From Kiritimatiellia bacterium (GTDB lineage Bacteria; Verrucomicrobiota; Kiritimatiellia; RFP12; JAAYLN01), in contig JAGCUY010000007.1 in assembly GCA_017962605.1 (NCBI GenBank), positions 752-64,751 of the forward strand: 64,000 nt of DNA. The letters run 5' to 3'. A program made the position numbers and the translations under genes. The notes under the pieces were generated by a model. The model did no database searches and was not told the DNA's origin. It saw only the letters and a list, made by a program, of their open reading frames with translations. How positions within the stretch are numbered: position 1 is the stretch's first letter; every line of letters begins with the position of its first letter. Positions 16,061 to 61,470 of the stretch are shown one piece after another.

Positions 16061-16140
16061 AAAACTCCGTGCCTCCGTGTCTCCGTGCGAACCCCAACTT
16101 TCGCATTCTCTGCGCAACCCTCTGCGCTCTCTGCGTTGAA
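16061..16140 (+). repeat. Related (ctc[ct]gtg)n element at the 5' end of the SGNH-hydrolase ORF
   Basis: 'ctccgtgcctccgtgtctccgtgcg...tctctgcgcaaccctctgcgctctctgcg' has arms similar to the 54631/55331 elements but in direct orientation. In-frame translation 'ILCATLCALCVE' resembles 'NLCGSVSLCEE'. Confidence 0.4.
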
Positions 16141-23735: not shown

Positions 23736-23887
23736 TACGCGTGAGCGCCAGACATCCTGTGTCTCCGTGCCTATGTGTGAGATTGTCTGCCGTACGGTAG
23801 CACCATGACGAATCCTGTCTGAAAAGAATAGATCATGTCACAAACAGCCCAACAACATCGTAGTTGTGACCACATTTCATCAAATGC

Positions 23888-37419: not shown

Positions 37420-38499
37420 ATGGGCACGATACTTGGAGACATGTTCAAGAAGGTCGGGGGTGGCCTTGGAAAAGGCTTTGCGTCATGGCTTGGGCAAATC
37501 TCGACGTGGATTGCGCTTTTAGTCGCAACAGTACTGGCTGTCGCATCTCTGGTTGGCGGCATCTTCTGGATCCCGACAAAAACGCTGGGCGTCCTGATCG
37601 CTGGCATCGGGTGTTTAGCTTCCGGCATTCTCTTTGCCCTCTGTCTGCGAAAGAGCGGAGTATTTGGCTCAAAGGATGCGGAAACCCGTGCTGCATTGCA
37701 GAAGGAAATCGAAAAACTCCGCTGCGAAAAGGATGCCCGCATCGCCGCGTTGGAGGCCGACAACGAACGTCTAAAGCACCAGCGCATCGACGTCAATTCG
37801 TTCGCGCCCATCCTCAAGCTGGGACTTGCCGAGGCTGACATGTCAGTTCGTGATGTGAAAATCGAATGGATGGACGATTTCAAGCCAGGAAACATGTTGA
37901 CGAATGTGATTGGCTACCCCGCGCGCAGCAAATACGTTGGTGTCATTCAACGGTCGTTCAAGGCCGTTTATGGCGTCGATTTGATGAAACTCAAGATTTG
38001 CGAGGATAACGACTGTCTTCGCATAGCCGGTATCGTGCCGGAGAACATCGGCATCAAGGATGACGAAACGCGCTGGCTTCTGCGTCAGACGCAGACTTTC
38101 CGGTTGAAGGGAACTCCTCTGACGCGCGGCGATGGCATCCCGCAGCAATGCGCCATAGGCGACGGCTGGGGCGATGGCGAGAAATTCTGGCAAATCGACA
38201 AGGAAGCGCCGTTCGAGGGCAGTCTCGATCTCAACAAGACTGCGGAAATGGCGAGTGCGCAGGAGCACGAGCTTGGCGAACGCATCAACCGAAGCCAGGG
38301 CGCCGAGTTTAGGATGATGAATGGCTACATCCAGCAAATGGCGCAAGGGTTTGTCAGACTCCTCCTCGCTCCCGCCCACAAGCCTGTGGTCTTCGTACAG
38401 ACTCCGCTTGCCGAAATCGCCGACTCTCCAGCATGGCTCTCTCTGGAAGACTTCGCTGCCGGATTCAACAATAAGTTGCTGGCGGAAAACAAACCATGA
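37420..38499 (+). CDS. Membrane protein with coiled-coil segment and DUF4230-like C-terminal domain (hypothetical)
   Basis: Two N-terminal TM helices, a coiled coil 'ALQKEIEKLRCEKDARIAALEADNERLK', and a region resembling DUF4230 ('VIQRSFKAVYGVDLMKLKI...'). Confidence 0.35.
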   Translation: MGTILGDMFKKVGGGLGKGFASWLGQISTWIALLVATVLAVASLVGGIFWIPTKTLGVLIAGIGCLASGILFALCLRKSGVFGSKDAETRAALQKEIEKLRCEKDARIAALEADNERLKHQRIDVNSFAPILKLGLAEADMSVRDVKIEWMDDFKPGNMLTNVIGYPARSKYVGVIQRSFKAVYGVDLMKLKICEDNDCLRIAGIVPENIGIKDDETRWLLRQTQTFRLKGTPLTRGDGIPQQCAIGDGWGDGEKFWQIDKEAPFEGSLDLNKTAEMASAQEHELGERINRSQGAEFRMMNGYIQQMAQGFVRLLLAPAHKPVVFVQTPLAEIADSPAWLSLEDFAAGFNNKLLAENKP

Positions 38500-39134
38500 C
38501 CAAAACAAGAACGAAGAAGTCCGCCAAGGGTGGGGCCATGAAGCCTTCCCTGCGAGACCGCATCTACACCTCCTTCGAGCAGATGACGGATGCGTACAAC
38601 GAAGTGCGTGATGACCTGATCGCGCTGGGCATTCTTTGGAGGGGCTCGAAGCTCGACAAGGTGGAGTGCTACTATGAATCCATCGCCCCCATTGCCGCTC
38701 TCAAGGGGGGGATGGGGTATTTCAGTTTCAAGGACCACGACATCCATTTTCCCTCCTTATATCTGCCTTTCGGCTGGCTGACCGGCAGCGTTGGCGAAAA
38801 AGATTCTGCATCAAACGTGATCCGCCACGAGTTCGGCCACGCGCTCGCCGATCAGTACCCAGCGGCGCTGAAAAAGGGCGGGCTTTTCCGCGAGGCGTTT
38901 GGAGGAGTCTATTCCGACAAGCCTGCGCCCGACATCGATCCCGACAACTGGGAGTTCGATTGCGTCTCCCCCTACGCCGCAACCGAAACCCGCGAGGACT
39001 TCGCGGAGACTTTCATGCTTTTCCTGAAGCACAAGGGGAAGTTGCCGAAAAAGTTCGCTAATAAACCAGCCATCGCGAAGAAATGGGCCGCTGTGGCTGA
39101 AATCATAAAGCGCGTTCGTGCATTAGAAAACTGA
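38496..39134 (+). CDS. HExxH zinc metallopeptidase-like protein
   Basis: 'IRHEFGHALAD' (HExxH) with a downstream Glu in 'REDFAETF'. Its start overlaps the previous stop (ATGA). Confidence 0.5.
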   Translation: MTKTRTKKSAKGGAMKPSLRDRIYTSFEQMTDAYNEVRDDLIALGILWRGSKLDKVECYYESIAPIAALKGGMGYFSFKDHDIHFPSLYLPFGWLTGSVGEKDSASNVIRHEFGHALADQYPAALKKGGLFREAFGGVYSDKPAPDIDPDNWEFDCVSPYAATETREDFAETFMLFLKHKGKLPKKFANKPAIAKKWAAVAEIIKRVRALEN

Positions 39135-39161
39135 AAGAATACCTAATCAGGAGACCTCATC

Positions 39162-39872
39162 ATGAATAAAACAACAACGAAGAAAAATGCGCCAAAGGCG
39201 CGTAGGGAAACTGAAACCGTAGTCTGCCCACATTGCGATACGGAGTGCCTTGTGTCGGAAAACGGACGCTATGAGTGTCCAAATTGCACAGGACAGTTCG
39301 ATGTAGACTGGTTTGACACGCCGCATGTCCACCAGCCCGACTTGCAGACATGCGGCTGGGCGACGACAAAGTGGCTTCTGTCCGCATTTGGGTGTGAGAT
39401 GCCATCAAACAAGCAACTCGAACGGGAACTGCATGTCCGCAAAGGTCGCGATGGTCTTTCGGGCGCACTTCTCAAGGCTTACAACTACTTTATCGAAGCT
39501 TTCGGCAAGAAGTGGAACTGGCAAAAGATCGACTCTCAGGACATTTCTGGAACTTTGCCCACCGACCTTGTCGCGACACTCAATCGACATGGACTCAAGC
39601 CTGTATTTCCTGGAATCCGCGAACTGCTCCGCTATTCCGACTATAAGAACTACATGAAAGAAGTGTTCGCCCAGCAAGGCCGTTTTGCGCTCTTCTATGT
39701 TAACACGACCCGCGATGGGTCTTATGCACATTGGATCGGGATTGAGAAGTTCAAGAACAGGGTCCGCGTGATGGATCCCATGGACTATGACTACTCGCCG
39801 TTTTCAAAGCACGAAGCCATCCGCAGCAAGCGAATTCGCGCATGCTGCATGATTGGGTTCGTGAGGGCGTAG
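39162..39872 (+). CDS. Zinc-ribbon + Peptidase_C39-like (papain-fold) domain protein
   Basis: 'CPHCDTEC...CPNC' ribbon. C39-type 'QPDLQTCGWATTKWLLSAFG' (Gln/Cys) and 'SYAHWIGIEKF...VMDPMD' (His/Asp). RBS 'aggaga' is present. Confidence 0.5.
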   Translation: MNKTTTKKNAPKARRETETVVCPHCDTECLVSENGRYECPNCTGQFDVDWFDTPHVHQPDLQTCGWATTKWLLSAFGCEMPSNKQLERELHVRKGRDGLSGALLKAYNYFIEAFGKKWNWQKIDSQDISGTLPTDLVATLNRHGLKPVFPGIRELLRYSDYKNYMKEVFAQQGRFALFYVNTTRDGSYAHWIGIEKFKNRVRVMDPMDYDYSPFSKHEAIRSKRIRACCMIGFVRA

Positions 39873-39902
39873 GGCGCTGTCGCGCCTGAGAGGTTTGTCG
39901 CC

Positions 39903-40265
39903 CGTGGTTAGTGATTAGTCGTTAGTCATTAGTGGCTCGCATGGTGTGCATCCCCTATCGAATATTTTCCCGCACCGTAATCTATCGACTTCTCCGCACC
40001 GTGGTCTAGCGACAATTCCTAACCTTAGTCTAGCGACCTTTCCGACCCGTAGTCTATCGATGTTTCCTCGCCATAGTCTATCGACATTCCCGCATGGTAT
40101 AGCCTATCGACTTTTCCGAAACATGATCCAAAGTTTTTCCGAACCATGGTCAGTTTTTCTTTCCGCACCATGGTCTATTTTTCTTTCCGCACCATGGTCT
40201 ATTTTTCTTTCCGCACCATGGTCTATTTTTCTTTCCGCACCATGGTCTTGTGAAACGAATGCATG
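39903..40265 (+). repeat. Right island-flanking repeat (IR-R): 'gtggttagtgattagtcgttag' head plus ~12 degenerate 24 to 27-bp tandem units ending in 4 perfect 'tttttctttccgcaccatggtcta' copies
   Basis: Direct reading. It matches 42030..42310 in the same orientation and 24781..24900 in inverted orientation. Confidence 0.8.
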
Positions 40266-40369
40266 GCGGCGCCGCATCAGCAGCTTGCGCATAGCGGGAG
40301 TGGTTGTGATACTACTCAATCAGATGACAAAGTGTGTAGATAGCAGAATGCGCCTGAGCAGAATACAGG

Positions 40370-40452
40370 TGGTTGTGAAAATGGAAAATTTGGCATATTT
40401 TGTGGTTGTGAAAATGTGAAAATCTGTATGTTTTATGGTTGTGAAAATGGAG
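40370..40452 (+). promoter_or_regulatory. Three ~31-bp direct repeats 'ggttgtgaaaatg' (iteron/operator-like) plus -10-like 'gatataat' upstream of the AAA ATPase
   Basis: 'ggttgtgaaaatggaaaatttggcatattttgtggttgtgaaaatgtgaaaatctgtatgttttatggttgtgaaaatggagcgaatatgatataat'. Confidence 0.4.
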
Positions 40453-40491
40453 CGAATATGATATAATATCTTGAATTTTGGGAGAATCTGC

Positions 40492-41862
40492 ATGATAAAC
40501 AGAAAAATAATGAAGAGGCTTGAACTCCTGCGTACTTCCAATGGAAAGCACGCGCTTCTCATCGATGGCGCGCGACAGACTGGGAAGACTTACATTGTAA
40601 GGGAATTCGCAAAAAGACATTACGAGTCCTTCATTGAAATCAACTTTATCAGAATGAAGAGGGCTCGGGAAATTTTCGAAAACGTCGAAGACGAGAAGGA
40701 CATCCTTGTAAAACTGTCAGCCCTGTTTAAGAAACCGCTGAAGAAAGGCGCAACGCTTGTGTTCCTTGACGAAGTTCAGGAATGCCCGGAGGCTGTCACT
40801 TACATCAAGTTTTTGGTGGAAGAGGGGTCGTGCCATTATGTGTTGAGCGGGTCCCTGCTGGGTGTCGAACTCAAAAACATTCGTTCGGTGCCTGTCGGGT
40901 ATATGGATGAGGTGAAGATGTATCCGCTGGACTTTGAGGAGTTCGTCGAGGCGAACGGTGAGTCCCCTGAATTGGTAGAGGCCGCAAGACAGTCGTGGAA
41001 CAAGCGCCGCCCGCTTGCCTCCGTCTATCACACGAGGCTGCTGAAACTTTTCCGGCTTTACCTTGTTGTTGGCGGCATGCCCGCCGTTGTCCAGAAATAC
41101 ATCGACACCCACGACATCGCCCAAGTCGTGCGCGAACAAAAAAAGATACTTGCGCTCTACCGCCGGGACATAACGCAATACGACGAGGCGAATTCCCTTC
41201 GAATTCGTGCCGTGTTCGACCGCATTCCGGCGGAGCTAAACGAGAAGAACAAGCGGTTTTTTGCGTCTTCCATAAAACCGGGCGTGAAGTTTGAAAACCT
41301 TGGAGACGAGTTCCTTTGGCTGAAAGAGGCTGGCGTGGCCCTTGCCACGGTTAACGTGGAGGCGCCGAAGTCGCCGCTCAAGCTTGCTGAGAAGCCAAGC
41401 TTGTTCAAGCTGTTTTCAAACGATGTCGGACTTCTGGCGGCCCAGTACATGAATGGAATCCAACTTGAGATCTTGAATGGAGCCGTGGATGTCAACTTTG
41501 GGGCCGTTTACGAGAACGCTGTGGCGCAGGAACTCGCCGCGCATGGGTTTGAGTTGAACTATTACGATTCAAACAGGCACGGGGAGATTGATTTTGTTTT
41601 GGAGCGCGAAGGGGGCGTTCTTCCCGTGGAAGTCAAGAGCGGAAAGCACTACAAGCGGCATCGTGCGTTGAACCATGTAATGGCGGACCGTGAATACGCG
41701 ATAAAGGAGGCGCTTGTCCTTGACGATTCGATGCTTTCCGTTGAAAATGGGATATTCTATGCGCCAATCTACATGGTCATGTTCCTGAAAAGGGACACCA
41801 TGCCTGAGAAGATGATCTACTCTGTAGGCACACCGCTGGAAGTGGCAAAAGCCTTGTCATGA
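40492..41862 (+). CDS. AAA+ ATPase (AAA_14 + DUF4143 family ATP-binding protein)
   Basis: Walker A 'GARQTGKTY' and Walker B 'LVFLDEVQ'. RBS 'gggaga' plus ATG at 40492 (the track start at 40471 is TTG). Lower G+C. Flanked by direct repeats. Confidence 0.6.
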   Translation: MINRKIMKRLELLRTSNGKHALLIDGARQTGKTYIVREFAKRHYESFIEINFIRMKRAREIFENVEDEKDILVKLSALFKKPLKKGATLVFLDEVQECPEAVTYIKFLVEEGSCHYVLSGSLLGVELKNIRSVPVGYMDEVKMYPLDFEEFVEANGESPELVEAARQSWNKRRPLASVYHTRLLKLFRLYLVVGGMPAVVQKYIDTHDIAQVVREQKKILALYRRDITQYDEANSLRIRAVFDRIPAELNEKNKRFFASSIKPGVKFENLGDEFLWLKEAGVALATVNVEAPKSPLKLAEKPSLFKLFSNDVGLLAAQYMNGIQLEILNGAVDVNFGAVYENAVAQELAAHGFELNYYDSNRHGEIDFVLEREGGVLPVEVKSGKHYKRHRALNHVMADREYAIKEALVLDDSMLSVENGIFYAPIYMVMFLKRDTMPEKMIYSVGTPLEVAKALS

Positions 41863-42029
41863 ACTTCCAACATCCTGCAGCCCGAACCGCATCCACCGGC
41901 ACGGCCACGGCGGCAAGTGCATCTGGTGCGGCTCAACCTCCACCGGCAGCGGGTGCCCATACTCCCCTACCCGCCGGCATGAACGGTAGAGGGCAGTGTG
42001 AACTTAGTCGCAATACTGTCTGAAGTTAA

Positions 42030-42310
42030 TCATTAGTCGTTAGCCGTTAGTCACTAGTCGTTAGTGGCTCGCACGGAGTGTATTCCCTATCGAATACTTT
42101 CCCGCACCGTAATCTATCGACTTCTCCGCACCGTGGTCTAGCGACCTTTCTGACCCGTAGTCTATCAATGTTTCCGCACTATAATCTATCGACATTCCCG
42201 CACGGTATAGTCTATCGACTTTTCCGAAACATGATCCAAAGTTTTTCCGAACCATGGTCTAATAATGTTTACGCTCCATGGTCTATTGGCATTTCCGAAC
42301 CATAGTCTTG
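42030..42310 (+). repeat. Second direct copy of the IR-R repeat
   Basis: 'cattagtcgttagccgttagtcactagtcgttagtggctcgcacggagtgtattccctatcgaatactttcccgcaccgtaatctatcgacttctccgcaccgtggtctagcgacc...'. Confidence 0.8.
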
Positions 42311-42314
42311 TGAA

Positions 42315-42410
42315 AGGGTGAGCCCTTCGGGCGAAGTTTGGAGGTTTGGCGCAATAGCGCCTTGGATGGTTGAGCCATTAGGGCGAAGTTTAGGAGTTTG
42401 GCGTGAAATC
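42315..42410 (+). repeat. 'gagcccttcgggcgaagtttggag' small repeat element (2 tandem copies)
   Basis: Further copies at 43116..43185 (same orientation) and 49275..49400 (inverted: 'ccaaacttccaaacttcgcccgaagggctcaaac'). Confidence 0.7.
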
Positions 42411-42423
42411 CTTTTTTTGTTTT

Positions 42424-42510
42424 TTTACCATGCGTTTCGTGGAAGTTTACAATTTTTTAACCATGCATTTCGTGGTAATATGACAATTTATTAACCACGC
42501 ATTTCGTGAT
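42424..42510 (+). repeat. Three ~31-bp direct repeats 'ttaaccatgcatttcgtgg' upstream of the truncated ATPase paralog
   Basis: 'accatgcgtttcgtggaagtttacaattttttaaccatgcatttcgtggtaatatgacaatttattaaccacgcatttcgtg'. Confidence 0.6.
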
Positions 42511-42517
42511 TGCTTGA

Positions 42518-43117
42518 TTGGCAAAAATATCGAAATATGATATTGTATTGGAGAGCAGCGCCCGTTTCCGCGAATACGAAGGTGCCTTCATGTGGCTAAA
42601 GGATGCCATGGTTGCAAATGTCGCCCTAAGCGTAACAGATCCGAACATTGGGTTTGACTTGAGCGCCGACGATGCCAAGATGAAATGCTACTTCCTTGAC
42701 ACGGGGCTTCTTGTCAGCCATGCGTTCAGCGAAAACGCGCTTGTCGCCGCCGACATCCACAAGAGAATTCTGTTTGATGACATCGAATTGAATGAAGGAA
42801 TGCTTGTTGAAAATGTCGTGGCCCAAATGCTATCTGCAGCCGGCCACAAGCTTTACTACTACTCAAATTCATCGCGGACCGATAGAGACTCCCGGATGGA
42901 AATTGACTTTCTCCTTGCCAGAAACACCCTGGGCGAGCGGAACAATGTTATTCCCGTTGAGGTGAAGAGCGGGAAGCGGACAACGCACCGTTCGCTAGAC
43001 AAGTTTCGCGCCAAGTTCGCAAACTACGTCCATACCCCTTGCATTCTTTCGCGGCGAGATTTAGAGATAAAGGACGGGATACTTTACCTCCCGCTCTACA
43101 TGACTCCATGTCTTTGA
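42518..43117 (+). pseudogene. N-terminally truncated paralog of the DUF4143 AAA ATPase (C-terminal ~200 aa only, no ATG)
   Basis: The ORF begins with TTG. It aligns to the C-terminal third of the 40492..41862 product ('FMWLKDAMVA' vs 'FLWLKEAGVA'; 'VIPVEVKSGKRT' vs 'VLPVEVKSGKHY'). Confidence 0.55.
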
Positions 43118-43316
43118 GCGCCGAAGTTTGGCGCTTACGCGCCCTTGATGTTTGAGCCATGCGGGCGAAGTTTGGAAATGGAGGATTGCGTGGCAGCGTG
43201 ATGGCAAAGGCTGGTTGCATTATTGCCGCTGTTTGCCTTTGAAGGGGCTTTTTTGATAAAATGAATATGTTGGAATTGCTTTATTTTTGAGAGTGAAAAA
43301 CAACGAGAACCAGGCA

Positions 43317-49888: not shown

Positions 49889-50202
49889 AATGCGTTACGG
49901 TTTATGTGAAGGGGGTCGAGGCCGGTGTGCTTGCCCGCTTTCGAAACGGCAGCTATGAATTCCGCTATACGCGCCGTTATCAGGAAAGCGCGAGGCCGTC
50001 GGTAGCCTTTTCCCTTCCAAAGCGCAAGGCCGTTCATCGCTCGGCAAAGTTGTTCCCTTTCTTTTTTGGGCTGCTTGCCGAGGGCGAGCAGAAGCGAATG
50101 CAGTGCCGGACATTGCGGATTGACGAAAACGATCATTTTTCCCGCCTTGCGGAGACCTGCAGGGAGGGGACAATAGGAGCCGTGTATGTCCTCCCGCGCT
50201 AA
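49885..50202 (+). CDS. hipS: HipS-like protein (stand-alone HipA N-terminal subdomain)
   Basis: 105 aa; RBS 'caggagg'. It corresponds to the HipA_N region and overlaps the downstream kinase by 17 nt. Confidence 0.6.
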   Translation: MKCVTVYVKGVEAGVLARFRNGSYEFRYTRRYQESARPSVAFSLPKRKAVHRSAKLFPFFFGLLAEGEQKRMQCRTLRIDENDHFSRLAETCREGTIGAVYVLPR

Positions 50203-51097
50203 AGTCCCTGATACACTGCCGTTCACTAAAGCGGACCTGAGGCTTCCGGTTATCGCGCGAAAGGGACGGCGAAACTCAATTTCCGGAGTTCAGCCCAAGG
50301 TTTTGCTTTCGATTGTCAAGGGTGAACTTGCGGTTGTGGAGACCGGTGGTGACTTCATTCTCAAGCCCGCTCCGGAGGATTCCCGCGCCAAGTTTCTGTC
50401 GGACATTCCGGCAAACGAGCACTTGACGATGACAATCGCATCACGGCTGTTTCGAATCCAAACGGCGGAAAACAAATGTGTCCGCTTTGCCGACGGGGAA
50501 CTCGCGTACCTTACTCGCCGTTTTGACCGCAGGGGCGGCGAAACCCTCAGACAAGAGGATCTTTGCCAGATTGCCGGGCGCAGCGAGGAAACCCATGGCG
50601 AGTCCTACAAGTATGACTTCAGCTACGAGGAAATGGCCGACATCATCCGAATGGCCTGCCCAGCCTGTCGCGTGGAACTGCCGAAGGTCTTTCGGCAGAT
50701 TGTATTCGACTACATTTTTGCCAACGGCGATGCCCACTTGAAGAATTTCTCAGTCTATGAAAGCAAACTGGGCGACTATGTGATGACGCCTGCCTACGAT
50801 TTGCTCAACACTTTTTTGCATTATCCGGGCGACCCAACATTCATGGCATTGTCCCTTTTTGGCGATCCTGATTTCATGACGCCGGAGTTTGAGCATCTTG
50901 GCTATTACTCGACACCGGACTTTGTGGCATTGGGGCGGGCCTATGGGCTTGACGATCGGGCCGTTTGCAGGATTCTGGATGAATTCAAGACGAATTCAAA
51001 AAAGGTGGAATTGATGGTCAGGGACTCCCTTTTGTCCGAAGATGCGAAAAAGGAATACCTTTGCATCTTCTACGACCGCCTCGCAATGTTTCGCTGA
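50186..51097 (+). CDS. hipT: HipT-like Ser/Thr kinase toxin (HipA C-terminal kinase core)
   Basis: P-loop-like 'ISGVQPKVLL' and catalytic 'GDAHLKNFSV' (DxHxKN) are present. Confidence 0.7.
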   Translation: MSSRAKVPDTLPFTKADLRLPVIARKGRRNSISGVQPKVLLSIVKGELAVVETGGDFILKPAPEDSRAKFLSDIPANEHLTMTIASRLFRIQTAENKCVRFADGELAYLTRRFDRRGGETLRQEDLCQIAGRSEETHGESYKYDFSYEEMADIIRMACPACRVELPKVFRQIVFDYIFANGDAHLKNFSVYESKLGDYVMTPAYDLLNTFLHYPGDPTFMALSLFGDPDFMTPEFEHLGYYSTPDFVALGRAYGLDDRAVCRILDEFKTNSKKVELMVRDSLLSEDAKKEYLCIFYDRLAMFR

Positions 51098-53954: not shown

Positions 53955-53987
53955 TTGGAAAACCGATGCCATGCGGAATGGTATAAT
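53955..53987 (+). promoter_or_regulatory. Promoter with extended -10 'TGgTATAAT' (TTGGAA -35) giving a leaderless start at 53995
   Basis: The 21-nt stretch 'aatggtataatagatgccatga' is nearly identical to 'aatggtataattgtgccatga' at 23907. Confidence 0.45.
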
Positions 53988-56900
53988 AGATGCCATGAGA
54001 CATACCGCGATTGCCATTCTTTCAGCTCTCTACCTGCTCGCTTTTTTCGCGGCTGGCGCGGCTCCCGAGGCCCGCGTCCTGCCATTTGAACGGGCGGCGT
54101 GGGAGAAATACCATCCGCTGGGTGGCGAGTTCGTGGACGGCCGCTATGTCTCGCTGCATGAGCAGGCGCCATCCTTCGAGGTGTCGCGGCTCGTGCCGCC
54201 GTCGGCCAATTTGGCCGTGGAGGCCACCTTCACGCCGGAGCGAAAGGCCGCCAAGGCCGACGGCACCGCCGCGATATCAATCTTCGAGTCGCCAGGCCAC
54301 TACTGGGATCTGGCGCTTTACGAGTCCAAGCCAGGCAAGCGCTCCATCGCCATGTCGGAGCGCAGCGGAACATCGCAAGTGCACTCCGCGCTGAAGATGG
54401 AGGCCGACATCGGCGCTGGCGCCACCTGGGAGTGGGGCCGCGCCTACAGCCTCCGCCTCGCCATCGACGGCAAAGGCGTCCAGGGCGAAGTGCGCGACGC
54501 GGAGAGCGGCGAGCTTCTCTTCCGCCGGCGCTACGCGCTTGCGCCGGGGCATATCGCCTCCGGCCGCCCCGCATTCAGGTTCAACCGCGTCATCGGCAAC
54601 TTCTCGGGCATAAAGGCGACGGTGAATGAAGCAGATTCACACAGAGCCACAGAGGCACAGAGAAGTTCATTGCCCTCAAATCATGAAACAAATCTCTGTG
54701 GCTCTGTGTCTCTGTGTGAGGAGAATAAAAAATTCTATCGCACAACGTGCGCCGAGGACGGGCGCTGGTGGTTCGTGGATCCCGATGGGAAGCGCTTCTT
54801 CCTCTCCGGCATCGGCGTGGTGTCGCACAACGGCTTCTTCAACTCGGCGCTTGGCTACGCCCCATACGCCCGCACAGTCGCCCGCAAGTATCCGACGCTT
54901 GACGACTGGGCCACCAACTCCCTCGCGCGCATCCGCTCATGGGGCTTCAACTTCCTCTCCTCGCCTTCGGCCATCCTCCTGCGGCGCGGCTTCCCGCACG
55001 CCCACGTCATCAACATCGGCCAGAACTTCGCCTGCTACGGCGACGAGTTCGACATCCTCCCCTGCGATGGCGGCCCGTGCTCTGGTTTTCCGAACGTATT
55101 CCATCCGCTCTTCAAGGAATACTGCCGCTTCCGAGTGCGGTCTTTCTGCACGGCCGACCGCGACGACCCCTGGACTCTAGGCTGGTATATCGACAACGAG
55201 CTATCATGGTGGGGCGACAAGCGCAAGTTCAAGACTCCGCCTGCGCGTGGCCTTTTCGACGCCGCCGCCCGCAAGGCGCCCGACCATCCGGCGCGCAAGG
55301 CCCTGGAGGCGTTTTTGGAAGAGTGGAACAATTCACACAAAGATACAGCGTCACATAGGGGTTCATTGTCCACCAATGCCAGTACAAATCTCTGTGTCTC
55401 TGTGTCTCTGTGTGACATTGAGAACATCCCCGTTGAAGTGACCCGCGAGTTCGTGCGGCTCGTGGCCCGCAAGTATTTCGAGGCCACGACAGCCGCGATA
55501 CGCGAGGTCGATCCCAACCACCTGATCCTCGGCTGCCGCTTCGCCGGCTTCGGCTCCGCAGACCCCGTCGTCTGGGAGGAGTGCGGGCGCTTCTGCGACG
55601 CCATCTCGGTGAACAGCTACCCGATGGTCGATCTCGACCGCGGGATTGCGGTGAGCGGCTTCGAGCGGCACGACCGTCCAATCGCCGACATCATCCGCGA
55701 ACGCGCGCGTCCTGCCGGCAAGCCGGTAATCATGACGGAATGGGGCTTTTCGGCGCTCGACTCCGGACTTCCCTGCACGCACGGCGCTGGGCAGCGCTTC
55801 TTCACGCAGAGGGAGCGGGCGGAGGCGACCTCGATCTTCGCCCGCACGATGTGGGCCTTGCCCGAGTGCGCCGGGTATGTCTATTTCATGTGGTGCGACG
55901 AACCGGCTGTCGGCAAGAACGGCCCAAAGAGCGAAAACACCAACTATGGCCTCGTCAACGCCGACGACGAGCCATACGAGGAGCAGGTGGCCGCGCTGTC
56001 CGCAGTGCAGCTGCATCCCGAAGAGTCGCGCCACGCGCCGCTGCCCGAGGCTCGCGAGGTCGTCCCGCCCAGTGCCGCAGAGATGGCCTCGAGGTTTGGA
56101 CGCGTGGAGTCGCAGGACATCTCCATTGGCGTGGCGAGCTCTCATGGCGCGCAGCGTGGCATCTCCATTGGCGGCGGCACGCTCACGCTGGCTCTTCGTG
56201 GGGATGGGAACGGCGCCTTTGAGGCCGATGTGCGCCTCCACCGCATTGCCGGGAGGTCATTTGTCATGGCCGAACTGCTTGCGGTGCGCAACTGCGGCGT
56301 GGAGCCAATGACTTTCGACGCGGCAACCTTCCAGTTCCTGCCCGCCGACGAGGCCGCAGTCGCGGGCACTGCGCCGGCGCGCGGCGACGACGTCTTTGCG
56401 CCGCCGGCCGATGGCCAGCCAACGCCGATCCCGCCAATGCTGTGGCGGCCGTGGCAGTCCGGCGCGTGGGTGCTGCCCGACGGCAACATCCTCGGCATGC
56501 TCTCGCCGCGCACCGTCGGCGTATCCATCAAGTTCCGCAAGGATGACGCCCTCCACGGCGACGCCGAGTATAAATGCGGAAGCCTCACCCTCGCCCCAGG
56601 CAGGGAGTGGAAGCCGCAGCATGCGCCATTCGTGATTGCCGCGGCCTTGTCGGGCGGCGAGGATGCCTGGCGCGACCTCTGCGCCGAAATCCGCGCAGCC
56701 GCCACCTTTCAAACTCCCGCAACCTTTTCCCTAACCATCGACCCCTCCCGCATCCTTGGCCCGGTGAAGCCGGTGAACGGCGTGGGGCAGCCGCCGATTC
56801 TCGGGCTTCGCAAGTATTCGATGTTCCGCTACCTCAAGGAGGCGGGCGTCCCTTTCTCGCGCCTTCATGACGTGGGTGGAATGTTCGGGCGCGGAATCTT

Positions 56901-59625
56901 CGTGGACATCCCGAATCTCTTCCCCGACTTCGATGCCGACGAGAACGATCCCGCCAACTACGACTTCACCTTCACGGACATCTTGGTGAACGCGCTGGTG
57001 GAGAATGGCGTCGAGCCTTTTTTTCGGCTAGGCGTAACTCTTGAGAACTACGCCACGATTCGCCGATACCGCATCGACCCGCCCAAGGACTACGCCAAGT
57101 GGGCGCGCATCTGCGAGCATGTCATCCGCCACTACACCGAAGGCTGGGCCGAGGGCTTCCACCACACCGTCAAGCACTGGGAAATCTGGAATGAGCCGGA
57201 CAACTGGGACGACCCTGAGCAGAACGAATCGTGGCATGGCACCTTCGAGGACTACTGCCGCCTCTATGAGACGGCCTCCAAGCACCTCAAGGCGAAATTT
57301 CCGCACCTCAAGATCGGCGGCCCCGCGAGCTGCGGCGTCGCATACCTGACGGGCTGGGATGTCCCTCGCGCCAAGCACCACCTCGACTGCTTCCACGCCT
57401 TTCTGCGCTACGTCCGCGAACACGATTGCCCGCTTGACTTCTTCTCCTGGCACAGCTATTCGACTGTGGAGAGCACCATGGCGCAGGCGCGCTATATCCG
57501 CGAGAAGCTTGACGAGGCAGGGTTTGCGGGCGTTCCCTCGGTTCTTGACGAGTGGCTGCCGGAGCCAGACCACGACAAGTTGGGCACGGCGGAGCAGGCG
57601 GCTGAAGTCGCGGCGGGGCTGATTGCGATGCAGAACGGGCCAGTTGACGCCGCCGCCATTTACGACGCCCGCTGCTCAATAGGCAAATACAGCGTGCTCT
57701 TCAACCCGCTCACATACGAGCCGCACAAGGCATACTGGGCCTTCGTGGCCTTCAACGAACTTCGCAAGTGCGGCACGGCGGTGGAGATCCACGAGTGCGG
57801 CGCAGACCAGCCTGCGCACGCCCTCGCGGCAGGACGAAAACAAGGCAGTTCCGCTTCCGTCTTGCCGCAAGGGCAAGCGCATGGCGCCGCACTTGCGGTT
57901 TACGCGGCGGCGAAGGGCGCTGATGGCACGGTCGCAGTGATGCTCGCGAACACCGGCGACGAAGAGGCACCGTTCGCGATAGAGAGCGCGGATGACAACA
58001 AGCGGACAACGGCAAGGAGCTGCCGCATCGTCGATGCTTGGCGCACATGGGAGGAGATTCCGCTTCCTGCGGCGCTGCCGCCTCATTCCTTTGTCCTCAT
58101 CTATTTTTCAACCAACCTCACAGGAAAGGCACAAAAAATGAACACACTGAATCCCAATGTCCGCGCGCTCGTCACGGTTGACCAGGCAACCGTAGTCGGC
58201 CCGGTGAAGCCCATGCACGCCGTTAACAACGGTCCCGCCGTGAAGAAGCCCGGCGGCGACCAGGTTCGCGGCAACTTCGATGAATACAAGGCGGCGCGAA
58301 TCCCATTCGCCCGCACCCACGACTCCATCAACTGCGTCTCAGGCGGCGCACACAATTGCGACATCAACGCCATCTTCCCCGACTTCGACGCCGACGAGAA
58401 CGACCCCGCCAACTACGACTTCGTCTTCACCGACCACTACCTCGACAACATCCGCCGCGCGGGGACGCAGGTCTTCTTCCGCCTTGGCCAGACGATCGAG
58501 CACGGGCCGAAGAAATACGGCGTCCTGCCGCCGAAGGACTTCGCCAAGTGGGCGCGCATTTGCGAGCATGTCATCCGCCACTACAACGAAGGCTGGGGCT
58601 GGGGCGTTGACAAGGGCTGGACGACGAAGAACATCGAATGGTCGAACCAGTTCGGCATCGAATATTGGGAAATCTGGAACGAGCCCGATCTCGATCCGTC
58701 CGATGGTGAACCGCCGCGCAACCCGCGCTGCTGGGGCGGGACGACGGAGGAGTTCTTCCGCTTCTTCGAGACGGCCGCGAAACACCTCAAGGCGAAATTC
58801 CCGCATCTCAAGATCGGCGGCCCCGCCCTTTGCGGACGTCTCGACTGGGGCGAGCGCTTCCTAGCCTACTGCCGCGACCACGAGGTGCCGCTTGACTTCT
58901 TCTCCTGGCATGTCTATGCGACCGAGCCGAAGACCATCGCCGGAAGGTGCGACGCCGTCCGGGCGCTGATGGACAAATACGGCTTCGGCAAGGCCGAGTC
59001 GATCCTCAACGAATGGAACTATGTCAAGGGCTGGACGGACGACTTCGTTTATTCGCTTGAAGTGGAGTCGGGGCGCTTCAACCAGAAGAGCGCGGCATTC
59101 GTCATGTCCGCGATGATCGACTGCCAGTGGAAGCCGCTCGACATGCTGATGTTCTACGATTCAAGAGTCGGCAGCGGCATGAACAACCTCTTCAACGCCA
59201 CGACGCTCTGGCCGATGAAGGGCTACTATCCCTTCTACGCATGGTCGAAGCTTGCGGCGCTTGGCACGCAGGTCGCCTGCGAAGTCACGGACGGGGGCGC
59301 CGGCGGCGGCGCCGCTGGCGATGGCCCGGCGACGGGCGTTGTCCTGGATCGCGCCGCCGTCGCGGAGACGCTTGGCCTCCGCGCCGTGGCGGCAAAAGGG
59401 GCTGACGGCTCCGGCGCCGCAATCGTCGCCCGCTATTCCGAGGACAACAACGTGACGGCCACAATCTGCGTGGCGGTTTCCGTTCCCGGCGCAGACCTTT
59501 CCCGGGCGCGCTGCCATGTCACCGACGCCGTTCGGACATTCACCGAGGTGCCTCTCGACATGCAGGAAGACGGCACGGCGCTTCTGCGCATGCAGCCCAA
59601 CTCCTTCGCAGTCGTCGAATGGTAG
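53971..59625 (+). CDS. Giant multi-module glycoside hydrolase (signal peptide + N-terminal domain + clan GH-A module + two GH39-like TIM-barrel modules)
   Basis: It is a continuous ORF. The probable start is ATG at 53995, giving signal peptide 'AIAILSALYLLAFFAAGAA'. The GH-A module has 'WYIDNEL' (acid/base) and 'IMTEWGFSA' (nucleophile). Two homologous modules carry 'FPDFDADENDPANYDF...KWARICEHVIRHY...WEIWNEPD'. An internal RBS plus ATG at 58138 may mark a separate gene (no stop between). Confidence 0.55.
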   Translation: MRNGIIDAMRHTAIAILSALYLLAFFAAGAAPEARVLPFERAAWEKYHPLGGEFVDGRYVSLHEQAPSFEVSRLVPPSANLAVEATFTPERKAAKADGTAAISIFESPGHYWDLALYESKPGKRSIAMSERSGTSQVHSALKMEADIGAGATWEWGRAYSLRLAIDGKGVQGEVRDAESGELLFRRRYALAPGHIASGRPAFRFNRVIGNFSGIKATVNEADSHRATEAQRSSLPSNHETNLCGSVSLCEENKKFYRTTCAEDGRWWFVDPDGKRFFLSGIGVVSHNGFFNSALGYAPYARTVARKYPTLDDWATNSLARIRSWGFNFLSSPSAILLRRGFPHAHVINIGQNFACYGDEFDILPCDGGPCSGFPNVFHPLFKEYCRFRVRSFCTADRDDPWTLGWYIDNELSWWGDKRKFKTPPARGLFDAAARKAPDHPARKALEAFLEEWNNSHKDTASHRGSLSTNASTNLCVSVSLCDIENIPVEVTREFVRLVARKYFEATTAAIREVDPNHLILGCRFAGFGSADPVVWEECGRFCDAISVNSYPMVDLDRGIAVSGFERHDRPIADIIRERARPAGKPVIMTEWGFSALDSGLPCTHGAGQRFFTQRERAEATSIFARTMWALPECAGYVYFMWCDEPAVGKNGPKSENTNYGLVNADDEPYEEQVAALSAVQLHPEESRHAPLPEAREVVPPSAAEMASRFGRVESQDISIGVASSHGAQRGISIGGGTLTLALRGDGNGAFEADVRLHRIAGRSFVMAELLAVRNCGVEPMTFDAATFQFLPADEAAVAGTAPARGDDVFAPPADGQPTPIPPMLWRPWQSGAWVLPDGNILGMLSPRTVGVSIKFRKDDALHGDAEYKCGSLTLAPGREWKPQHAPFVIAAALSGGEDAWRDLCAEIRAAATFQTPATFSLTIDPSRILGPVKPVNGVGQPPILGLRKYSMFRYLKEAGVPFSRLHDVGGMFGRGIFVDIPNLFPDFDADENDPANYDFTFTDILVNALVENGVEPFFRLGVTLENYATIRRYRIDPPKDYAKWARICEHVIRHYTEGWAEGFHHTVKHWEIWNEPDNWDDPEQNESWHGTFEDYCRLYETASKHLKAKFPHLKIGGPASCGVAYLTGWDVPRAKHHLDCFHAFLRYVREHDCPLDFFSWHSYSTVESTMAQARYIREKLDEAGFAGVPSVLDEWLPEPDHDKLGTAEQAAEVAAGLIAMQNGPVDAAAIYDARCSIGKYSVLFNPLTYEPHKAYWAFVAFNELRKCGTAVEIHECGADQPAHALAAGRKQGSSASVLPQGQAHGAALAVYAAAKGADGTVAVMLANTGDEEAPFAIESADDNKRTTARSCRIVDAWRTWEEIPLPAALPPHSFVLIYFSTNLTGKAQKMNTLNPNVRALVTVDQATVVGPVKPMHAVNNGPAVKKPGGDQVRGNFDEYKAARIPFARTHDSINCVSGGAHNCDINAIFPDFDADENDPANYDFVFTDHYLDNIRRAGTQVFFRLGQTIEHGPKKYGVLPPKDFAKWARICEHVIRHYNEGWGWGVDKGWTTKNIEWSNQFGIEYWEIWNEPDLDPSDGEPPRNPRCWGGTTEEFFRFFETAAKHLKAKFPHLKIGGPALCGRLDWGERFLAYCRDHEVPLDFFSWHVYATEPKTIAGRCDAVRALMDKYGFGKAESILNEWNYVKGWTDDFVYSLEVESGRFNQKSAAFVMSAMIDCQWKPLDMLMFYDSRVGSGMNNLFNATTLWPMKGYYPFYAWSKLAALGTQVACEVTDGGAGGGAAGDGPATGVVLDRAAVAETLGLRAVAAKGADGSGAAIVARYSEDNNVTATICVAVSVPGADLSRARCHVTDAVRTFTEVPLDMQEDGTALLRMQPNSFAVVEW
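54631..54720 (+). mobile_element. Palindromic mini-element inserted in frame in the GH gene (copy 1)
   Basis: 'cacacagagccacagaggcacagag' ... loop ... 'ctctgtggctctgtgtctctgtgtg' (arms are reverse complements). It is 90 bp = 30 codons with no stop, encoding '...SHRATEAQRSSLPSNHETNLCGSVSLCE'. Confidence 0.6.
55331..55415 (+). mobile_element. Palindromic mini-element inserted in frame in the GH gene (copy 2, degenerate left arm)
   Basis: 'attcacacaaagatacagcgtcacataggggttcattgtccaccaatgccagtacaaatctctgtgtctctgtgtctctgtgtga'. It shares the 'ttcattg...caaatctctgtg.ctctgtgtctctgtgtga' core with copy 1 and encodes '...SHKDTASHRGSLSTNASTNLCVSVSLCD'. Confidence 0.6.
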
Positions 59626-60919: not shown

Positions 60920-61387
60920 ATGTCATACCACGAACTGAACGGAACTCTTGAGGCGAAGGGCGTCTCCTTCGCAATCGCGGTCAGCCGCTTCAACAGCTTC
61001 ATCACCGAGCAGCTGGTGAAAGGCGCCCTTGACTGCATCGCCCGCCACGGCGGATCCGACGAGCAGGTGACAGTCGTCCGCGTCCCCGGCGCCAATGAGC
61101 TGCCGATGGTCGCCGACAAGCTCGCCGCAAGCGGCAAGTTCGACGTCGTCATCGCCCTCGGCGCCGTGATCCGCGGCGCCACGCCCCACGCCGACCTCAT
61201 CAACAGCCAGGTCTCGAAGTCGCTGGCCCAGGTCGCGATAGCGCATGGCGTGCCGGTGATCAACTCCGTCATCTGCGCCGACAGCATCGAGCAGGCCGTT
61301 GAACGCGCTGGAACCAAGGCCGGCAACAAGGGCTGGGATGGCGCGCAGGCCGCCATGGAGATGGCAACGCTCTGGAAGAAGCTCTAG
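60920..61387 (+). CDS. ribH: 6,7-dimethyl-8-ribityllumazine synthase
   Basis: 'FAIAVSRFNSFITEQLVKGALD', 'VVRVPGANELPMVA' and 'FDVVIALGAVIRGATPHADLI' are present. The ribH-nusB synteny is conserved. Confidence 0.9.
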   Translation: MSYHELNGTLEAKGVSFAIAVSRFNSFITEQLVKGALDCIARHGGSDEQVTVVRVPGANELPMVADKLAASGKFDVVIALGAVIRGATPHADLINSQVSKSLAQVAIAHGVPVINSVICADSIEQAVERAGTKAGNKGWDGAQAAMEMATLWKKL

Positions 61388-61470
61388 CCCCTAGCCCCTA
61401 GTCCCTGACCCCTAGCCCCTAGCCCCTAGCTACTACCTAGTCCCTAGCCCCTAGCCCCTAGTCCCTACTC
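61385..61470. repeat. (CCCCTAG)n heptanucleotide microsatellite (~11 units with variants) between ribH and nusB
   Basis: 'tagcccctagcccctagtccctgacccctagcccctagcccctagctactacctagtccctagcccctagcccctagtccctac'. Confidence 0.9.

Follow-up and report, generated by a model that had tools for sequence, protein, structure and literature searches.

In-frame hairpin elements in a GH50-like glycoside hydrolase gene of a Kiritimatiellia bacterium and their relation to a cross-phylum class of inverted arrays that also bracket GxxExxY genes

The 64-kb stretch of DNA from a Kiritimatiellia bacterium analysed here (hereafter, the window) contains a 1884-aa ORF (53971..59625, + strand) that harbours two related hairpin elements, both in frame and free of stop codons, as a preliminary description of the window had stated. 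Their arms belong to a class of inverted arrays distributed among many phyla and found also around genes of the GxxExxY family, a membership that goes beyond what the window sequence alone could show. In our view, it is rather likely that the elements are MITE-like forms derived from GxxExxY cassettes, without the gene, and that protein loops tolerate them.

Two related hairpin elements lie within one gene

Arm structure, shuffle statistics and folds bear out the presence of the two elements, all parts of which are on the + strand. Copy 1 (54637-54719) consists of a left arm formed by TCA and (CACAGAG+N) x3 (54637..54663), a loop with sequence AGTTCATTGCCCTCAAATCATGAAACAAA (54664..54692) and a right arm formed by T, (CTCTGTG+N) x3 and GA (54693..54719); its 27-nt arms are 93% complementary and enclose 29 nt. 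As deduced from the GC profile and from an alignment of orthologues (alignment A1), the element with its low-GC flanks spans 54622..54735, that is, 38 codons (aa 218-255). Copy 2 (55333-55415) has 26-nt arms, 81% complementary, and a 31-nt loop; its left arm is decayed (TCACACAAAGATACAGCGTCACATAG, 55333..55358) and its right arm is intact ((CTCTGTG+N) x3 plus GA, 55390..55415), and with flanks it occupies 55321..55431, or 37 codons (aa 451-487). The repeat unit, initially taken for a heptamer, is an octamer composed of CTCTGTG plus one variable base; the arms contain nearly no stop codons in any of the six frames, and three octamers amount to exactly eight codons.

The arm pattern occurs nine times in the window, versus 0.35 occurrences expected from shuffles. 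RNA folding, which had been proposed as a check, predicted strong hairpins for both copies (−46 kcal/mol and z = −6.9 for copy 1; −36 kcal/mol and z = −4.3 for copy 2), copy 1 being by far the strongest hairpin of the window, and the GC content within the elements is 43–47%, compared with ~65% in their surroundings. The copies, separated by ~700 nt, have a common orientation, a common frame and alike flanks, and their loops are identical at 20 of 31 positions (65%), a value reached in none of 20,000 permutations. The junctions of copy 1 (CACAGAGAAGTT...ACAAATCTCTGTG) match the inner junctions of the cross-phylum class described below (GAGAA... following the left arm and AAAT preceding the right one), and the outer termini of the window copies are TCACAC...GTGTGA (ATTCACAC... 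/ ...GTGTGAGG).

The whole window did not yield any Rfam match at the gathering score, and the sub-threshold matches by E-value in this region correspond to eukaryotic miRNA-precursor models, which fit any long hairpin and are meaningless here; a scan for tRNA and tmRNA genes found nothing. An intein, a translational bypass and a DGR were likewise discarded from inspection of the sequence, which lacks intein motifs, a take-off stop and a template repeat and is read in an uninterrupted frame.

The host gene encodes a GH50-like enzyme

From its translation, Pfam GH39 matches and orthologues, the 1884-aa ORF comprises a signal peptide, an N-terminal beta-sandwich, a GH50-like barrel, a C-terminal domain and two GH39-like modules. 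Its front part, up to the C-terminal domain, matches orthologues of ~900–940 aa (about 927 aa), and the fused ORF is intact in a second strain (L128, 1880 aa). PDB profile and sequence matches delimit a GH50-like (beta/alpha)8 catalytic domain at 54736..56070 (aa 256 to ~700, + strand), the best PDB matches being the GH50 agarases 5z6p (1.2e-33), 4bq2 and 6xj9, plus BpGH50 5t3b, and all 17 of the top 17 Foldseek matches were to GH50, with a probability of 1.00. The DNEL motif (55192..55203, + strand, aa 408-411), containing the putative acid/base Glu410, aligns with IDNE of GH50, and TEWG (55735..55746, + strand, aa 589-592), containing the putative nucleophile Glu590, aligns with GEF(H). Residues D408, N409, E410, L411, T589, E590 and W591 are invariant among the 21 sequences of alignment A1, and E410 (in DNEL) and E590 (in TEW) occupy what we take to be the positions of the GH50 catalytic residues, on strands 4 and 7.

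The overall omega of the fused ORF is 0.23, and it falls to 0.05 in the GH50 part flanking the elements, which is under strong purifying selection, whereas dN is ~15 times higher in copy 2 (0.06) than in its flanks (0.004). Intact ORFs in two strains and low omega values argue that the host gene is functional and, together with the GH50 matches, that the elements reside, as proposed earlier, inside a real glycoside hydrolase gene.

Both copies had been placed between DNEL and TEWG. This location is correct for copy 2 (aa 451-487), which sits in a barrel loop between helices 440-460 and 488-513, but not for copy 1 (aa 218-255), which lies upstream of the catalytic domain, in a hypervariable linker after the N-terminal beta-sandwich and before the barrel. 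Examination of a structure model, also suggested in the preliminary description, agrees with an insertion in a loop and in a linker, respectively, since in the AlphaFold model pLDDT is below 50 exactly at both inserts (residues 224-251 and 462-472). The peptide spanning the insert includes ...NLCGSVSLCEENK...

Empty alleles and recurrent occupation of the same sites

The elements and comparable hairpins are found in three hypervariable segments of the orthologues, here termed sites 1 to 3, with copy 1 at site 1 and copy 2 at site 2. Around 46 of the 50 scorable orthologues show a short loop at site 2, with an anchor spacing of 27–28 aa, and its conserved form, RG(F/L/I)xxPxxA, is found in orthologues with 38–73% identity. 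Protein P0002, which is 64% identical to the window protein, contains at site 2 the same segment as the window protein, of equal length; however, P0008 lacks this insert despite being 97–99% identical to P0002 outside the three hypervariable segments. Comparison of a filled (L001) and an empty (L003) allele, 97–99% identical, shows 105 nt versus 30 nt at site 2, with a net gain of 25 aa and without any target-site duplication, which corresponds to a replacement and not to the clean insertion of ~29 aa initially described. Copy 1 is in turn absent from close orthologues such as P0001 and P0003.

An exhaustive phmmer search against 1.84 billion cluster representatives found no real homologue of the inserted peptide, its single match being a spurious one to a eukaryote-looking kinase-repeat protein; a word-index protein search with this peptide gave no candidates, and the insert peptides have no match in NCBIfam at E values up to 1 or in Pfam at 0.001. 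Together, the short loop of most orthologues, the empty site of P0008 and the lack of relatives of the peptide indicate that these are lineage-specific inserts and not native protein, and the orthologue alignment thus sustains, for site 2, what had been anticipated.

The elements of the window are also present, in independent assemblies, in L127 and L128 (95–96.5% identity) and in L001 and L002, with strain-level substitutions inside copy 2. Other orthologues are occupied by different sequences: site 1 contains a distinct hairpin, (TGCAATCGAA)n, in L001 and REP-like triplets in L130; site 3 contains hairpins of the CGCAGAG or CTCCGCG types in L129, L130 and L131; and an independent half element, CTCTGCG x3-TTGAA, is found at site 2 in P0006/L134. 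The behaviour of the elements can be considered RPE-like because other orthologues carry different in-frame hairpins at the same three permissive sites, whose recurrent occupation indicates, as a natural experiment would, which parts of a GH50-type barrel can accommodate 25–35 extra residues. A metagenome scan for the subfamily defined by the loop retrieved four matches, all of them in this gene or in the P0002 orthologue and none at any other locus; this lends no support to a family dispersed through the genome, as had been envisaged, and suggests that the copy number in the source genome may be very low.

The arms belong to a class of hairpins present in many phyla

The palindromes are not unique to the window. 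Using the pattern AAATCTCTGTGNCTCTGTG, and among the matches listed, we found the class arm pattern in over 120 stretches of DNA, belonging to more than a dozen phyla that include Acidobacteriota, Chloroflexota, Bacteroidota, Planctomycetota, Verrucomicrobiota, Kiritimatiellia, Pseudomonadota, Spirochaetota and others. About half of these listed matches have an inverted left arm, and their commonest right ends are GTGAA, GTTAA and GTAAA, neither feature being part of the search pattern. Outer termini of the class are commonly TTCACC... / ...GGT(G/T)AA (TTCACCAC...GTGGTGAA), from which those of the window differ; the TGAGG ending seen in the window is in the minority, with 6 of 243 arms among the listed matches. 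Also among the listed matches, arms have 2–4 inverted units, compared with three per arm in copy 1 and three in the right arm of copy 2, and the median loop is 29 nt, versus 29 and 31 nt in the window copies. Complementarity between spacer bases is more frequent in the class than arm base frequencies would predict (41 of 66 pairs versus ~46% expected, in our own calculation).

Members of the class are mostly intergenic, occur both as full hairpins and as single arms, reach a density of one hairpin per 1–5 kb in some loci, and are present also in isolate genomes and finished chromosomes. Gene callers may be translating intergenic gene-less shells into spurious low-complexity peptides. The orientation of half elements is mixed, with 20 pointing toward the start and 41 toward the end of a gene according to crude ORF calls. 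In L069, a hairpin that seemed to lie in frame within an ORF of 1514 codons was discarded, this ORF being a spurious antisense one from a high-GC genome, and a phage origin was rejected, with only two matches in 2.9 million viral contigs. A full-text literature search for the arm sequences found no paper, and we found no description of the hairpin class in the literature on Kiritimatiellae repeats or on REP/RAYT in these phyla.

Inverted arrays bracket GxxExxY genes

All six GxxExxY ORFs found in pattern-selected loci, from five phyla, were associated with class-type arms; five were bracketed on both sides, and the sixth runs off the end of the locus, with the left arm alone visible. Loci selected by pattern are biased toward this association, and we used as an unbiased sample eight plasmid records retrieved by protein similarity alone: inverted heptamer arrays surrounded the GxxExxY gene in four of them, two with CACAGAG, and the remaining records contained a plain inverted repeat (one) or direct repeats (three). 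The cassettes in the plasmid records are placed between housekeeping genes, e.g. fabD and fabG. Both the arms and the inner junctions are common to gene-less hairpins and to the arrays bracketing GxxExxY genes, as observed for the class in other genomes. In the window, no GxxExxY gene or transposase was identified among the ~45 ORFs scanned, and no GxxExxY gene was identified in related Kiritimatiellae loci.

By profile match, the gene inside the arms belongs to TIGR04256 / PF13366 (PDDEXK_3), a family whose function is listed as unknown in a superfamily catalogue (Steczkiewicz et al. 2012, PMC3424549). Our search of the literature for GxxExxY, PDDEXK_3, PF13366 and TIGR04256 found this catalogue and incidental mentions, and nothing more; the hairpins offer a testable idea for a large family of unknown function.

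Possible origin of the elements

We propose that the window elements would be non-autonomous hairpin repeats, MITE/REPIN-like in kind, whose gene-bearing form would consist of a small GxxExxY nuclease gene inside inverted arrays, (CACAGAG-N)n ... (CTCTGTG-N)n. Members of this class would have landed, by insertion or by short-tract recombination, in three fast-evolving and permissive segments of a secreted GH50-like enzyme in a Kiritimatiellae lineage, namely the linker before the barrel, the loop between barrel strands 4 and 5, and the linker after the barrel. Copies would survive because the reading frame is kept, with the ribosome presumably reading them as an extra, poorly constrained and harmless loop peptide. 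The GxxExxY nuclease could act on the extruded hairpin or cruciform, moving the elements, which, if true, would be a new spreading mode for small elements. Counting against this proposal are the absence of a target-site duplication, the exchange of 30 for 105 nt at site 2, the lack of a GxxExxY gene or transposase among the scanned window ORFs, the restriction of the loop subfamily to this gene and the departure of the termini from the commonest ones of the class, and the position of both copies 700 nt apart in one gene fits local copying as well as transposition.

Tentatively, we further suggest that GxxExxY genes and inverted heptamer+1 arrays could constitute an undescribed class of selfish elements, present in many phyla, in which the PD-(D/E)XK protein would recognise or cut the hairpin or cruciform of its own arms, and from which the gene-less hairpins would derive; we see this as possible, yet still short of probable. 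The gene-less hairpins would then be far more numerous than the gene-bearing form, could settle in protein loops and linkers because their arms are nearly stop-free in six frames, and might possibly supply signal-peptide cores.

The elements could instead have originated in place, with nothing mobile involved, by replication slippage of 7–10-nt units at each site, in weakly constrained segments, with a later template switch duplicating the arms in inverted orientation. The abundance of unrelated short tandem arrays in intergenic regions of this genome, the differing unit types in the linkers of orthologues, the divergence from a close relative of the units at 16065-16135 (see below), the missing target-site duplication and the confinement of the loop subfamily to one gene would all fit such a process. 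However, copies 1 and 2 have in common flanks and a 31-nt loop that is not repetitive, so at least one of them must derive from another element; moreover, this heptamer and comparable termini, together with the inner junctions GAGAAAA... / ...AAATCTCTGTG, are found again in more than 12 phyla and around GxxExxY genes, a pattern that independent slippage would not produce, and we regard an origin in place as unlikely. A role of the RNA or DNA that would maintain the hairpins, or copy 1 if not both, also seems rather improbable to us; candidate roles include a ribosome pause at a domain boundary that would help the protein to fold or be exported, processing by RNase III, and stabilisation of the mRNA. 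Copy 1 does lie exactly at a domain boundary and forms a near-perfect 27-bp stem of high stability, the spacer bases of the class tend to pair, and among three strains only 1 of the 114 sites of copy 1 is variable, compared with 10 of 111 in copy 2. Yet this low variability does not depart significantly from that of the gene as a whole (one variable site versus ~3.7 expected; P ~0.12, Poisson estimate), and with zero or one substitutions a strong constraint on copy 1 was rejected; besides, close orthologues do without copy 1, the left arm of copy 2 has decayed, and the Rfam search produced only the sub-threshold miRNA-like matches.

Loss from most orthologues of a segment that was native to the protein would explain why P0002, with only 64% identity, shares with the window protein a site-2 segment of the same length, but we find this very hard to sustain. 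The short loop is conserved from close to distant orthologues and is present in P0008, the near twin of P0002, and it is not credible that loss of the segment would have restored the ancestral loop exactly; in addition, the GC content and the hairpin structure are foreign to the gene, and the peptide has no relatives at the protein level. Palindromes can also come from assembly errors, and the related sequences are all from metagenome assemblies; nevertheless, an assembly or sequencing artefact has a practically negligible probability in view of the occurrence of the same elements in independent assemblies, with strain-level substitutions in copy 2, the preservation of the reading frame throughout, and the existence of class members in isolate genomes and finished chromosomes.

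Comparison with known repeats

In-frame colonisation by palindromes is best known from Rickettsia, and here it affects a free-living, polysaccharide-degrading gut bacterium. RPEs are presented, in a review on MITEs (PMC10969869, citing Ogata et al. 2000, 2002), as ~100-nt palindromes located in frame in functional genes, in loops compatible with the protein fold. The window elements are also in-frame palindromic units of ~100 nt, absent from orthologues and encoding a passenger peptide, and the early comparison with RPEs holds for this insertion behaviour; it does not extend to kinship, because there is no similarity in sequence or peptide (no Pfam or NCBIfam match). A model for the RPE1 domain is included in NCBIfam. 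Unlike RPEs, the window elements have arms made of tandem octamers, were seen as just two copies within the 64 kb, sharing a single gene, and reside in a free-living gut Kiritimatiellae bacterium instead of in a reduced intracellular genome, whereas the hairpin class to which they belong spans many phyla, is mainly intergenic and has a candidate partner gene, GxxExxY.

The class resembles REPs and REPINs in that its hairpins lie for the most part outside genes, reach a high density in certain genomes, appear as full hairpins and single arms, and have a small cognate gene that is itself flanked by repeats. According to PMC6006769, REP insertions inside coding sequences are known for tnpA-REP genes, and REPs and their RAYT genes co-evolve. 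However, the gene flanked by the arms has a PD-(D/E)XK fold (PF13366) and not that of an HUH Y1 transposase (RAYT), the window ORFs scanned did not include a Y1 transposase, and neither the window nor the class termini show beside the stem the GTAG or CGTC tags described for REPs (PMC3733652). Additionally, the class arms are tandem heptamer+1 arrays, with one heptamer recurring across phyla, and the window copies are intragenic.

Similarly to bacterial MITEs (ERIC, BOX, QMITE1 and Anabaena MITEs), whose in-frame fusion with ORFs of the host has been documented (PMC10969869), the elements are short and non-autonomous and, at the class level, have terminal inverted repeats in common with a gene-bearing form; they differ in lacking a target-site duplication and a DDE transposase partner, and in that most of the window element consists of inverted repeats. 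The TAACTGA heptamer repeats of Beggiatoaceae, Cyanobacteria and Bacteroidetes consist of 2–6 units, often upstream of start codons, with a patchy distribution across phyla and a mechanism that is not known (PMC4679880). They recall the half elements and the two direct arrays of the window (16065-16135), but they are direct and not inverted, differ in sequence, and no gene bracketed by them is reported. The cyanobacterial STRR are further examples of intergenic heptamer direct repeats. Lastly, intervening sequences of 23S rRNA genes can contain a small ORF in a long stem and are tolerated in a functional gene, with RNase III excising them; in the window, by contrast, the reading frame runs through the element, which is presumably translated.

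Other arrays in the window

What had been described as a third, rearranged copy at 16061-16140 corresponds to two direct arrays (+ strand), with neither an inverted repeat nor the common loop, and is related to the hairpin elements only at the level of the repeat class. The first array, (CTCCGTG+N) x3 (16065..16087), is a class-type half element that does not form a hairpin, and the second contains three CTCTGCG units ending in TTGAA (16108..16135), just before an ATG at 16141. Read from an upstream start at 16048, the latter encodes LCATLCALCV, which is probably the signal-peptide core of an SGNH hydrolase. The units in 16065-16135 differ in number and sequence from those of a relative with 89% identity (L136), where the 16065..16087 array is absent or different. 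An isolated arm fragment, CTCCGTGCCTATGTGTGAGA, is located in an intergenic position at 23763..23782 (+ strand), and many other, unrelated short tandem arrays occupy the intergenic regions, with units such as TTTCAACC, CTTTTCAA, GACTTTC, CTAGCCC and ACTACGC.

Two related hairpins in a functional glycosidase gene

The 1884-aa glycosidase ORF (53971-59625) contains two hairpin elements in the same orientation and frame, encoding the peptide (D/N)SH(R/K)xT...NLCxSVSLC(E/D). Copy 1 has arms of 27 nt (54637-54663 and 54693-54719), 93% complementary, around a loop of 29 nt, and copy 2 has arms of 26 nt (55333-55358 and 55390-55415), 81% complementary, around a loop of 31 nt. Each arm consists of three octamers, in which CACAGAG or CTCTGTG is followed by a single variable base, and the repeat period is thus eight, not seven as in the preliminary description. 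The two-unit arm pattern occurs nine times in the window, versus 0.35 expected from shuffles. RNA folding supported the hairpins, with -46 and -36 kcal/mol for copies 1 and 2 (z-scores -6.9 and -4.3), copy 1 being the strongest hairpin of the entire window. The elements have 43-47% GC, compared to ~64% for the surrounding gene. Their short low-GC flanks are alike and their loops are identical at 20 of 31 positions, a value reached in none of 20,000 permutations; both copies are therefore related to each other beyond their repetitive arms.

Residues 1 to ~900 of the host protein match a family of ~900-940 aa from Kiritimatiellae without any Pfam domain, whose profile matches the GH50 agarases 5z6p, 4bq2 and 6xj9 and BpGH50 (5t3b), with E values down to 1e-33. 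The top 17 matches in a Foldseek comparison of the AlphaFold model with the PDB were all GH50, and motifs DNEL (E410) and TEWG (E590), which do not vary across the family, aligned to the GH50 DNE and GEF motifs; the central domain is thus GH50-like. The gene is also functional, as judged from the intact 1880-aa ORF of a ~95% identical strain (locus L128) and from a low omega (0.23 overall, and 0.05 across the GH50 part). Both the window gene and its L128 counterpart fuse the GH50-like protein, a ~385-aa module and a ~439-aa GH39 module into one ORF of 1884 or 1880 aa whose junctions are free of stop codons; homologue P0003 is likewise fused to the following module, and in L129 (1459-6736) the same three modules are separate, slightly overlapping genes. 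The ~385-aa module matches GH39 in the window, and in L129 its counterpart has no more than a faint Cellulase match. At around 56170-56200 (aa ~733-745), the window protein lacks ~40 residues of the C-terminal domain present in its orthologues (columns ~940-985 of orthologue alignment A1).

Both copies had been placed between the catalytic motifs, which holds for copy 2 (aa 451-487), lying between DNEL and TEWG in a coil that joins helices 440-460 and 488-513, but not for copy 1 (aa 218-255). The latter occupies the linker from the N-terminal beta-sandwich, whose strands end at residue 218, to the first barrel strand at residue 257. Both inserts are modelled as coil or linker with pLDDT below 50 (residues 224-251 in copy 1 and 462-472 in copy 2), which is supportive rather than decisive because low pLDDT is expected wherever few alignment rows share a segment.

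The elements are foreign to the host gene

The conserved anchors around site 2, the barrel loop containing copy 2, are separated by 27-28 aa in ~46 of the 50 measurable homologues, the exceptions being P0002 (+25), P0006 (+20), P0010 (+6) and P0054 (+10). P0002 (loci L001 and L002) contains the same element as the window, of equal length and with 80% identity, whereas its near-twin P0008 (L003) has an ordinary loop without it, confirming that the inserts are lineage-specific. At this site L001 has 105 nt in place of 30 nt in L003, with no target-site duplication in the comparison of the two alleles, and three of the four substitutions within ~30 nt of the L001 insert match the window's allele. 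Since P0001 and P0003, neither of which has the element, are nearer to the window protein than P0002 is, a vertical origin would require many exact losses and is not credible; short-tract recombination or parallel insertion brought the element into the lineages of the window and P0002. The inserted peptide does not represent a protein module, with no match in Pfam or NCBIfam and no real match among 1.84 billion representatives.

Between strains, copy 2 has a dN of 0.06, versus 0.004 for its flanks, and 10 variable sites in 111 nt, versus a gene-wide mean of 3.25%. Three strains show a single variable site in copy 1 (54622-54735) and ten in copy 2 (55321-55431), where variation affects the left arm, the loop and the flank but spares the right arm. 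The L001 and L003 genes share 97-99% identity except in three hypervariable segments, which are fully different and turn over far faster than point substitution: the linkers preceding (site 1) and following (site 3) the barrel, and site 2.

Other orthologues carry different in-frame hairpins at these same three segments. Site 1 contains a long in-frame hairpin of (TGCAATCGAA)n units in L001 (2200-2290) and, in L130 (3622-3726), three tandem REP-like GCCGCCAACGGCGGCGATTTAA units in frame, each a small palindrome; site 3 of L129, L130 and L131 contains in-frame CGCAGAG- and CTCCGCG-type hairpins; and site 2 of P0006 (L134) contains an independent (CTCTGCG+T)x3-TGAA half element in a different reading frame. 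For this reason, the proposed likeness to Rickettsia palindromic elements (RPEs) stands as to behaviour, a recurrent in-frame colonisation of a working gene, but neither as to kinship with RPEs nor as to placement. In-frame intragenic MITEs have been described (PMC10969869), and ours is a variant of this already known kind of in-frame intragenic palindromic repeat. Our results show that the elements are foreign to the host gene, patchy among its orthologues and kept in frame within a gene that is under selection.

A cross-phylum class of hairpins associated to GxxExxY genes

Scanning one genome per species with the pattern AAATCTCTGTGNCTCTGTG matched at least 120 stretches, when ~17 were estimated by chance (18 specified bases, 596 Gb, both strands). 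The matches listed come from Acidobacteriota (many Pyrinomonadaceae), Chloroflexota, Bacteroidota, Planctomycetota, Verrucomicrobiota, Kiritimatiellia, Pseudomonadota, Spirochaetota, Chlamydiota, Cloacimonadota, Sumerlaeota, Abditibacteriota and others. Among them, about half have an inverted (CACAGAG+N)n arm no more than 120 nt away, arms usually end in GTGAA, GTTAA or GTAAA and contain 2-4 units, the median loop is 29 nt long, and complementarity between spacer bases is above expectation; the pattern included neither the inverted arm nor the arm end, unit number, loop length or spacer complementarity. The copies listed are mostly intergenic, certain loci contain one hairpin per 1-5 kb, and only two hairpins are in viral contigs. 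The window elements have the arms, inner junctions and loop length of the class, with outer termini of a minority type.

In four loci, arms 380-500 nt apart enclose an ORF of ~120-130 aa whose start (MNHRDTETQRD...) lies at the left arm and whose stop directly precedes the right arm, and that corresponds to TIGR04256 GxxExxY (Pfam PF13366, PDDEXK_3; E values from 1e-36 to 1e-45). An HMM search of class and related loci retrieved six such genes of ~125 aa (L033:7207-7631, L054:2408-2926, L087:4101-4616, L037:4278-4692, L064 and L071), from a betaproteobacterium, two Chloroflexota, a Flavobacteriales, a Marinimicrobia and a Blastocatellia. All six have class-type arms, on both sides in five, the sixth gene reaching the end of its locus. 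Because these loci were preselected by the arm motif, we took an independent sample of eight plasmid records, picked by protein similarity alone. Inverted heptamer arrays surround the gene in four of them (L137-L140): a Bacteroides finegoldii record with canonical TTCACCACAGAG...CTCTGTGGTGAA arms, and others from Bernardetia, Sphingomonas (CGCGAAG units) and Gemmatirosa (CGCAGAG units); one of the remainder has a plain inverted repeat and three have direct repeats. The cassette unit is often CACAGAG, with CGCAGAG or CGCGAAG in some cases.

Gene-less hairpins have inner ends (GAGAAAA... and ...AAATCTCTGTG) matching the short leader and trailer found in gene-bearing cassettes, the remnant expected from internal deletion of the GxxExxY gene. 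Gene-less hairpins with cassette arms far outnumber the gene-bearing form. GxxExxY cassettes are flanked by housekeeping genes in several phyla, for instance fabD and fabG. PF13366 is catalogued as of unknown function, with "multiple transfers, mixed clades" (PMC3424549), and we found no description of the arms in the searchable literature. The window elements thus belong to a class with a gene-bearing form encoding a PD-(D/E)XK protein, and their main interest is as a lead toward this cross-phylum class tied to GxxExxY genes.

Origin of the elements

The observation of in-frame hairpins is real, if partly mis-described in period, placement and a third copy; orthologue comparison rules out native enzyme sequence, and independent assemblies rule out an artefact. 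We propose that the elements move or are copied via a hairpin or cruciform form, on which a GxxExxY nuclease would act in trans, and that inserts would be translated as a harmless loop peptide, selection keeping only frame-preserving copies in loops and linkers. As read from sequence, (CACAGAG+N)n is stop-free in every frame, its complement contains a stop (TGA) only if the spacer is A, and three octamers make 24 nt, or eight codons; such arms are therefore tolerated with unusual ease within coding DNA. Counting against the proposal are the replacement, instead of a clean insertion, without target-site duplication, the finding of neither a GxxExxY gene nor a transposase among the window ORFs scanned, and a loop-defined subfamily seen only in this gene in a metagenome scan.

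Alternatively, the arms could have arisen by slippage in place, in line with the many unrelated tandem arrays of this genome; however, slippage cannot explain the non-repetitive loop common to copies 1 and 2, nor arms and junctions identical across phyla. Copy 1 could have a structural or regulatory role, but its conservation does not call for one, with one variable site versus ~3.7 expected (estimated P ~0.12).

Other repeats and genes in the window

The supposed third copy, at 16061-16140, lacks both an inverted repeat and a shared loop. It comprises (CTCCGTG+N)x3 and then three CTCTGCG units, all in direct orientation, and lies within the 5' end of an SGNH/GDSL hydrolase ORF (16048-17274). 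An 89% identical locus, L136, has four degenerate units versus the 3 + 3 of the window. These arrays are probably coding, variable among relatives and kin to the hairpin arms at class level only. Distant SGNH orthologues have classical signal peptides, with cores ...LCALLCALFVG... in P0064 and ...ILCALFVG... in P0065, and the window hydrolase reads ...FRILCATLCALCVE... from an upstream start; its signal peptide may be repeat-derived. The arrays at 16048-16140 translate as a plausible signal peptide, MTQMKNSVPPCLRANPNFRILCATLCALCVE..., the cores of relatives being of the LCALLCALFV type.

Unrelated intergenic tandem arrays of 7-8-nt units (ACTACGC, TTTCAACC, CTTTTCAA, GACTTTC/T and CTAGCCC) occur at 9040-9140, 23660-23735, 24860-25020, 25100-25165 and 61384-61470. 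They are reminiscent of TAACTGA repeats and resemble cyanobacterial STRR sequences. Tandem arrays also mark the left edge of a possible acquired or defence island of lower GC (23600-43200; 50-55% versus ~63%), which contains genes for two dynamin-like GTPases, two Hsp70/MreB-like proteins (one with LGFP repeats), a PrsW-type protease, an AbiEi-like regulator and AAA/DUF4143 ATPases. Directly upstream of the glycosidase cluster, 50186-51097 encodes a protein with a HipA-like C-terminal domain (toxin-type kinase).
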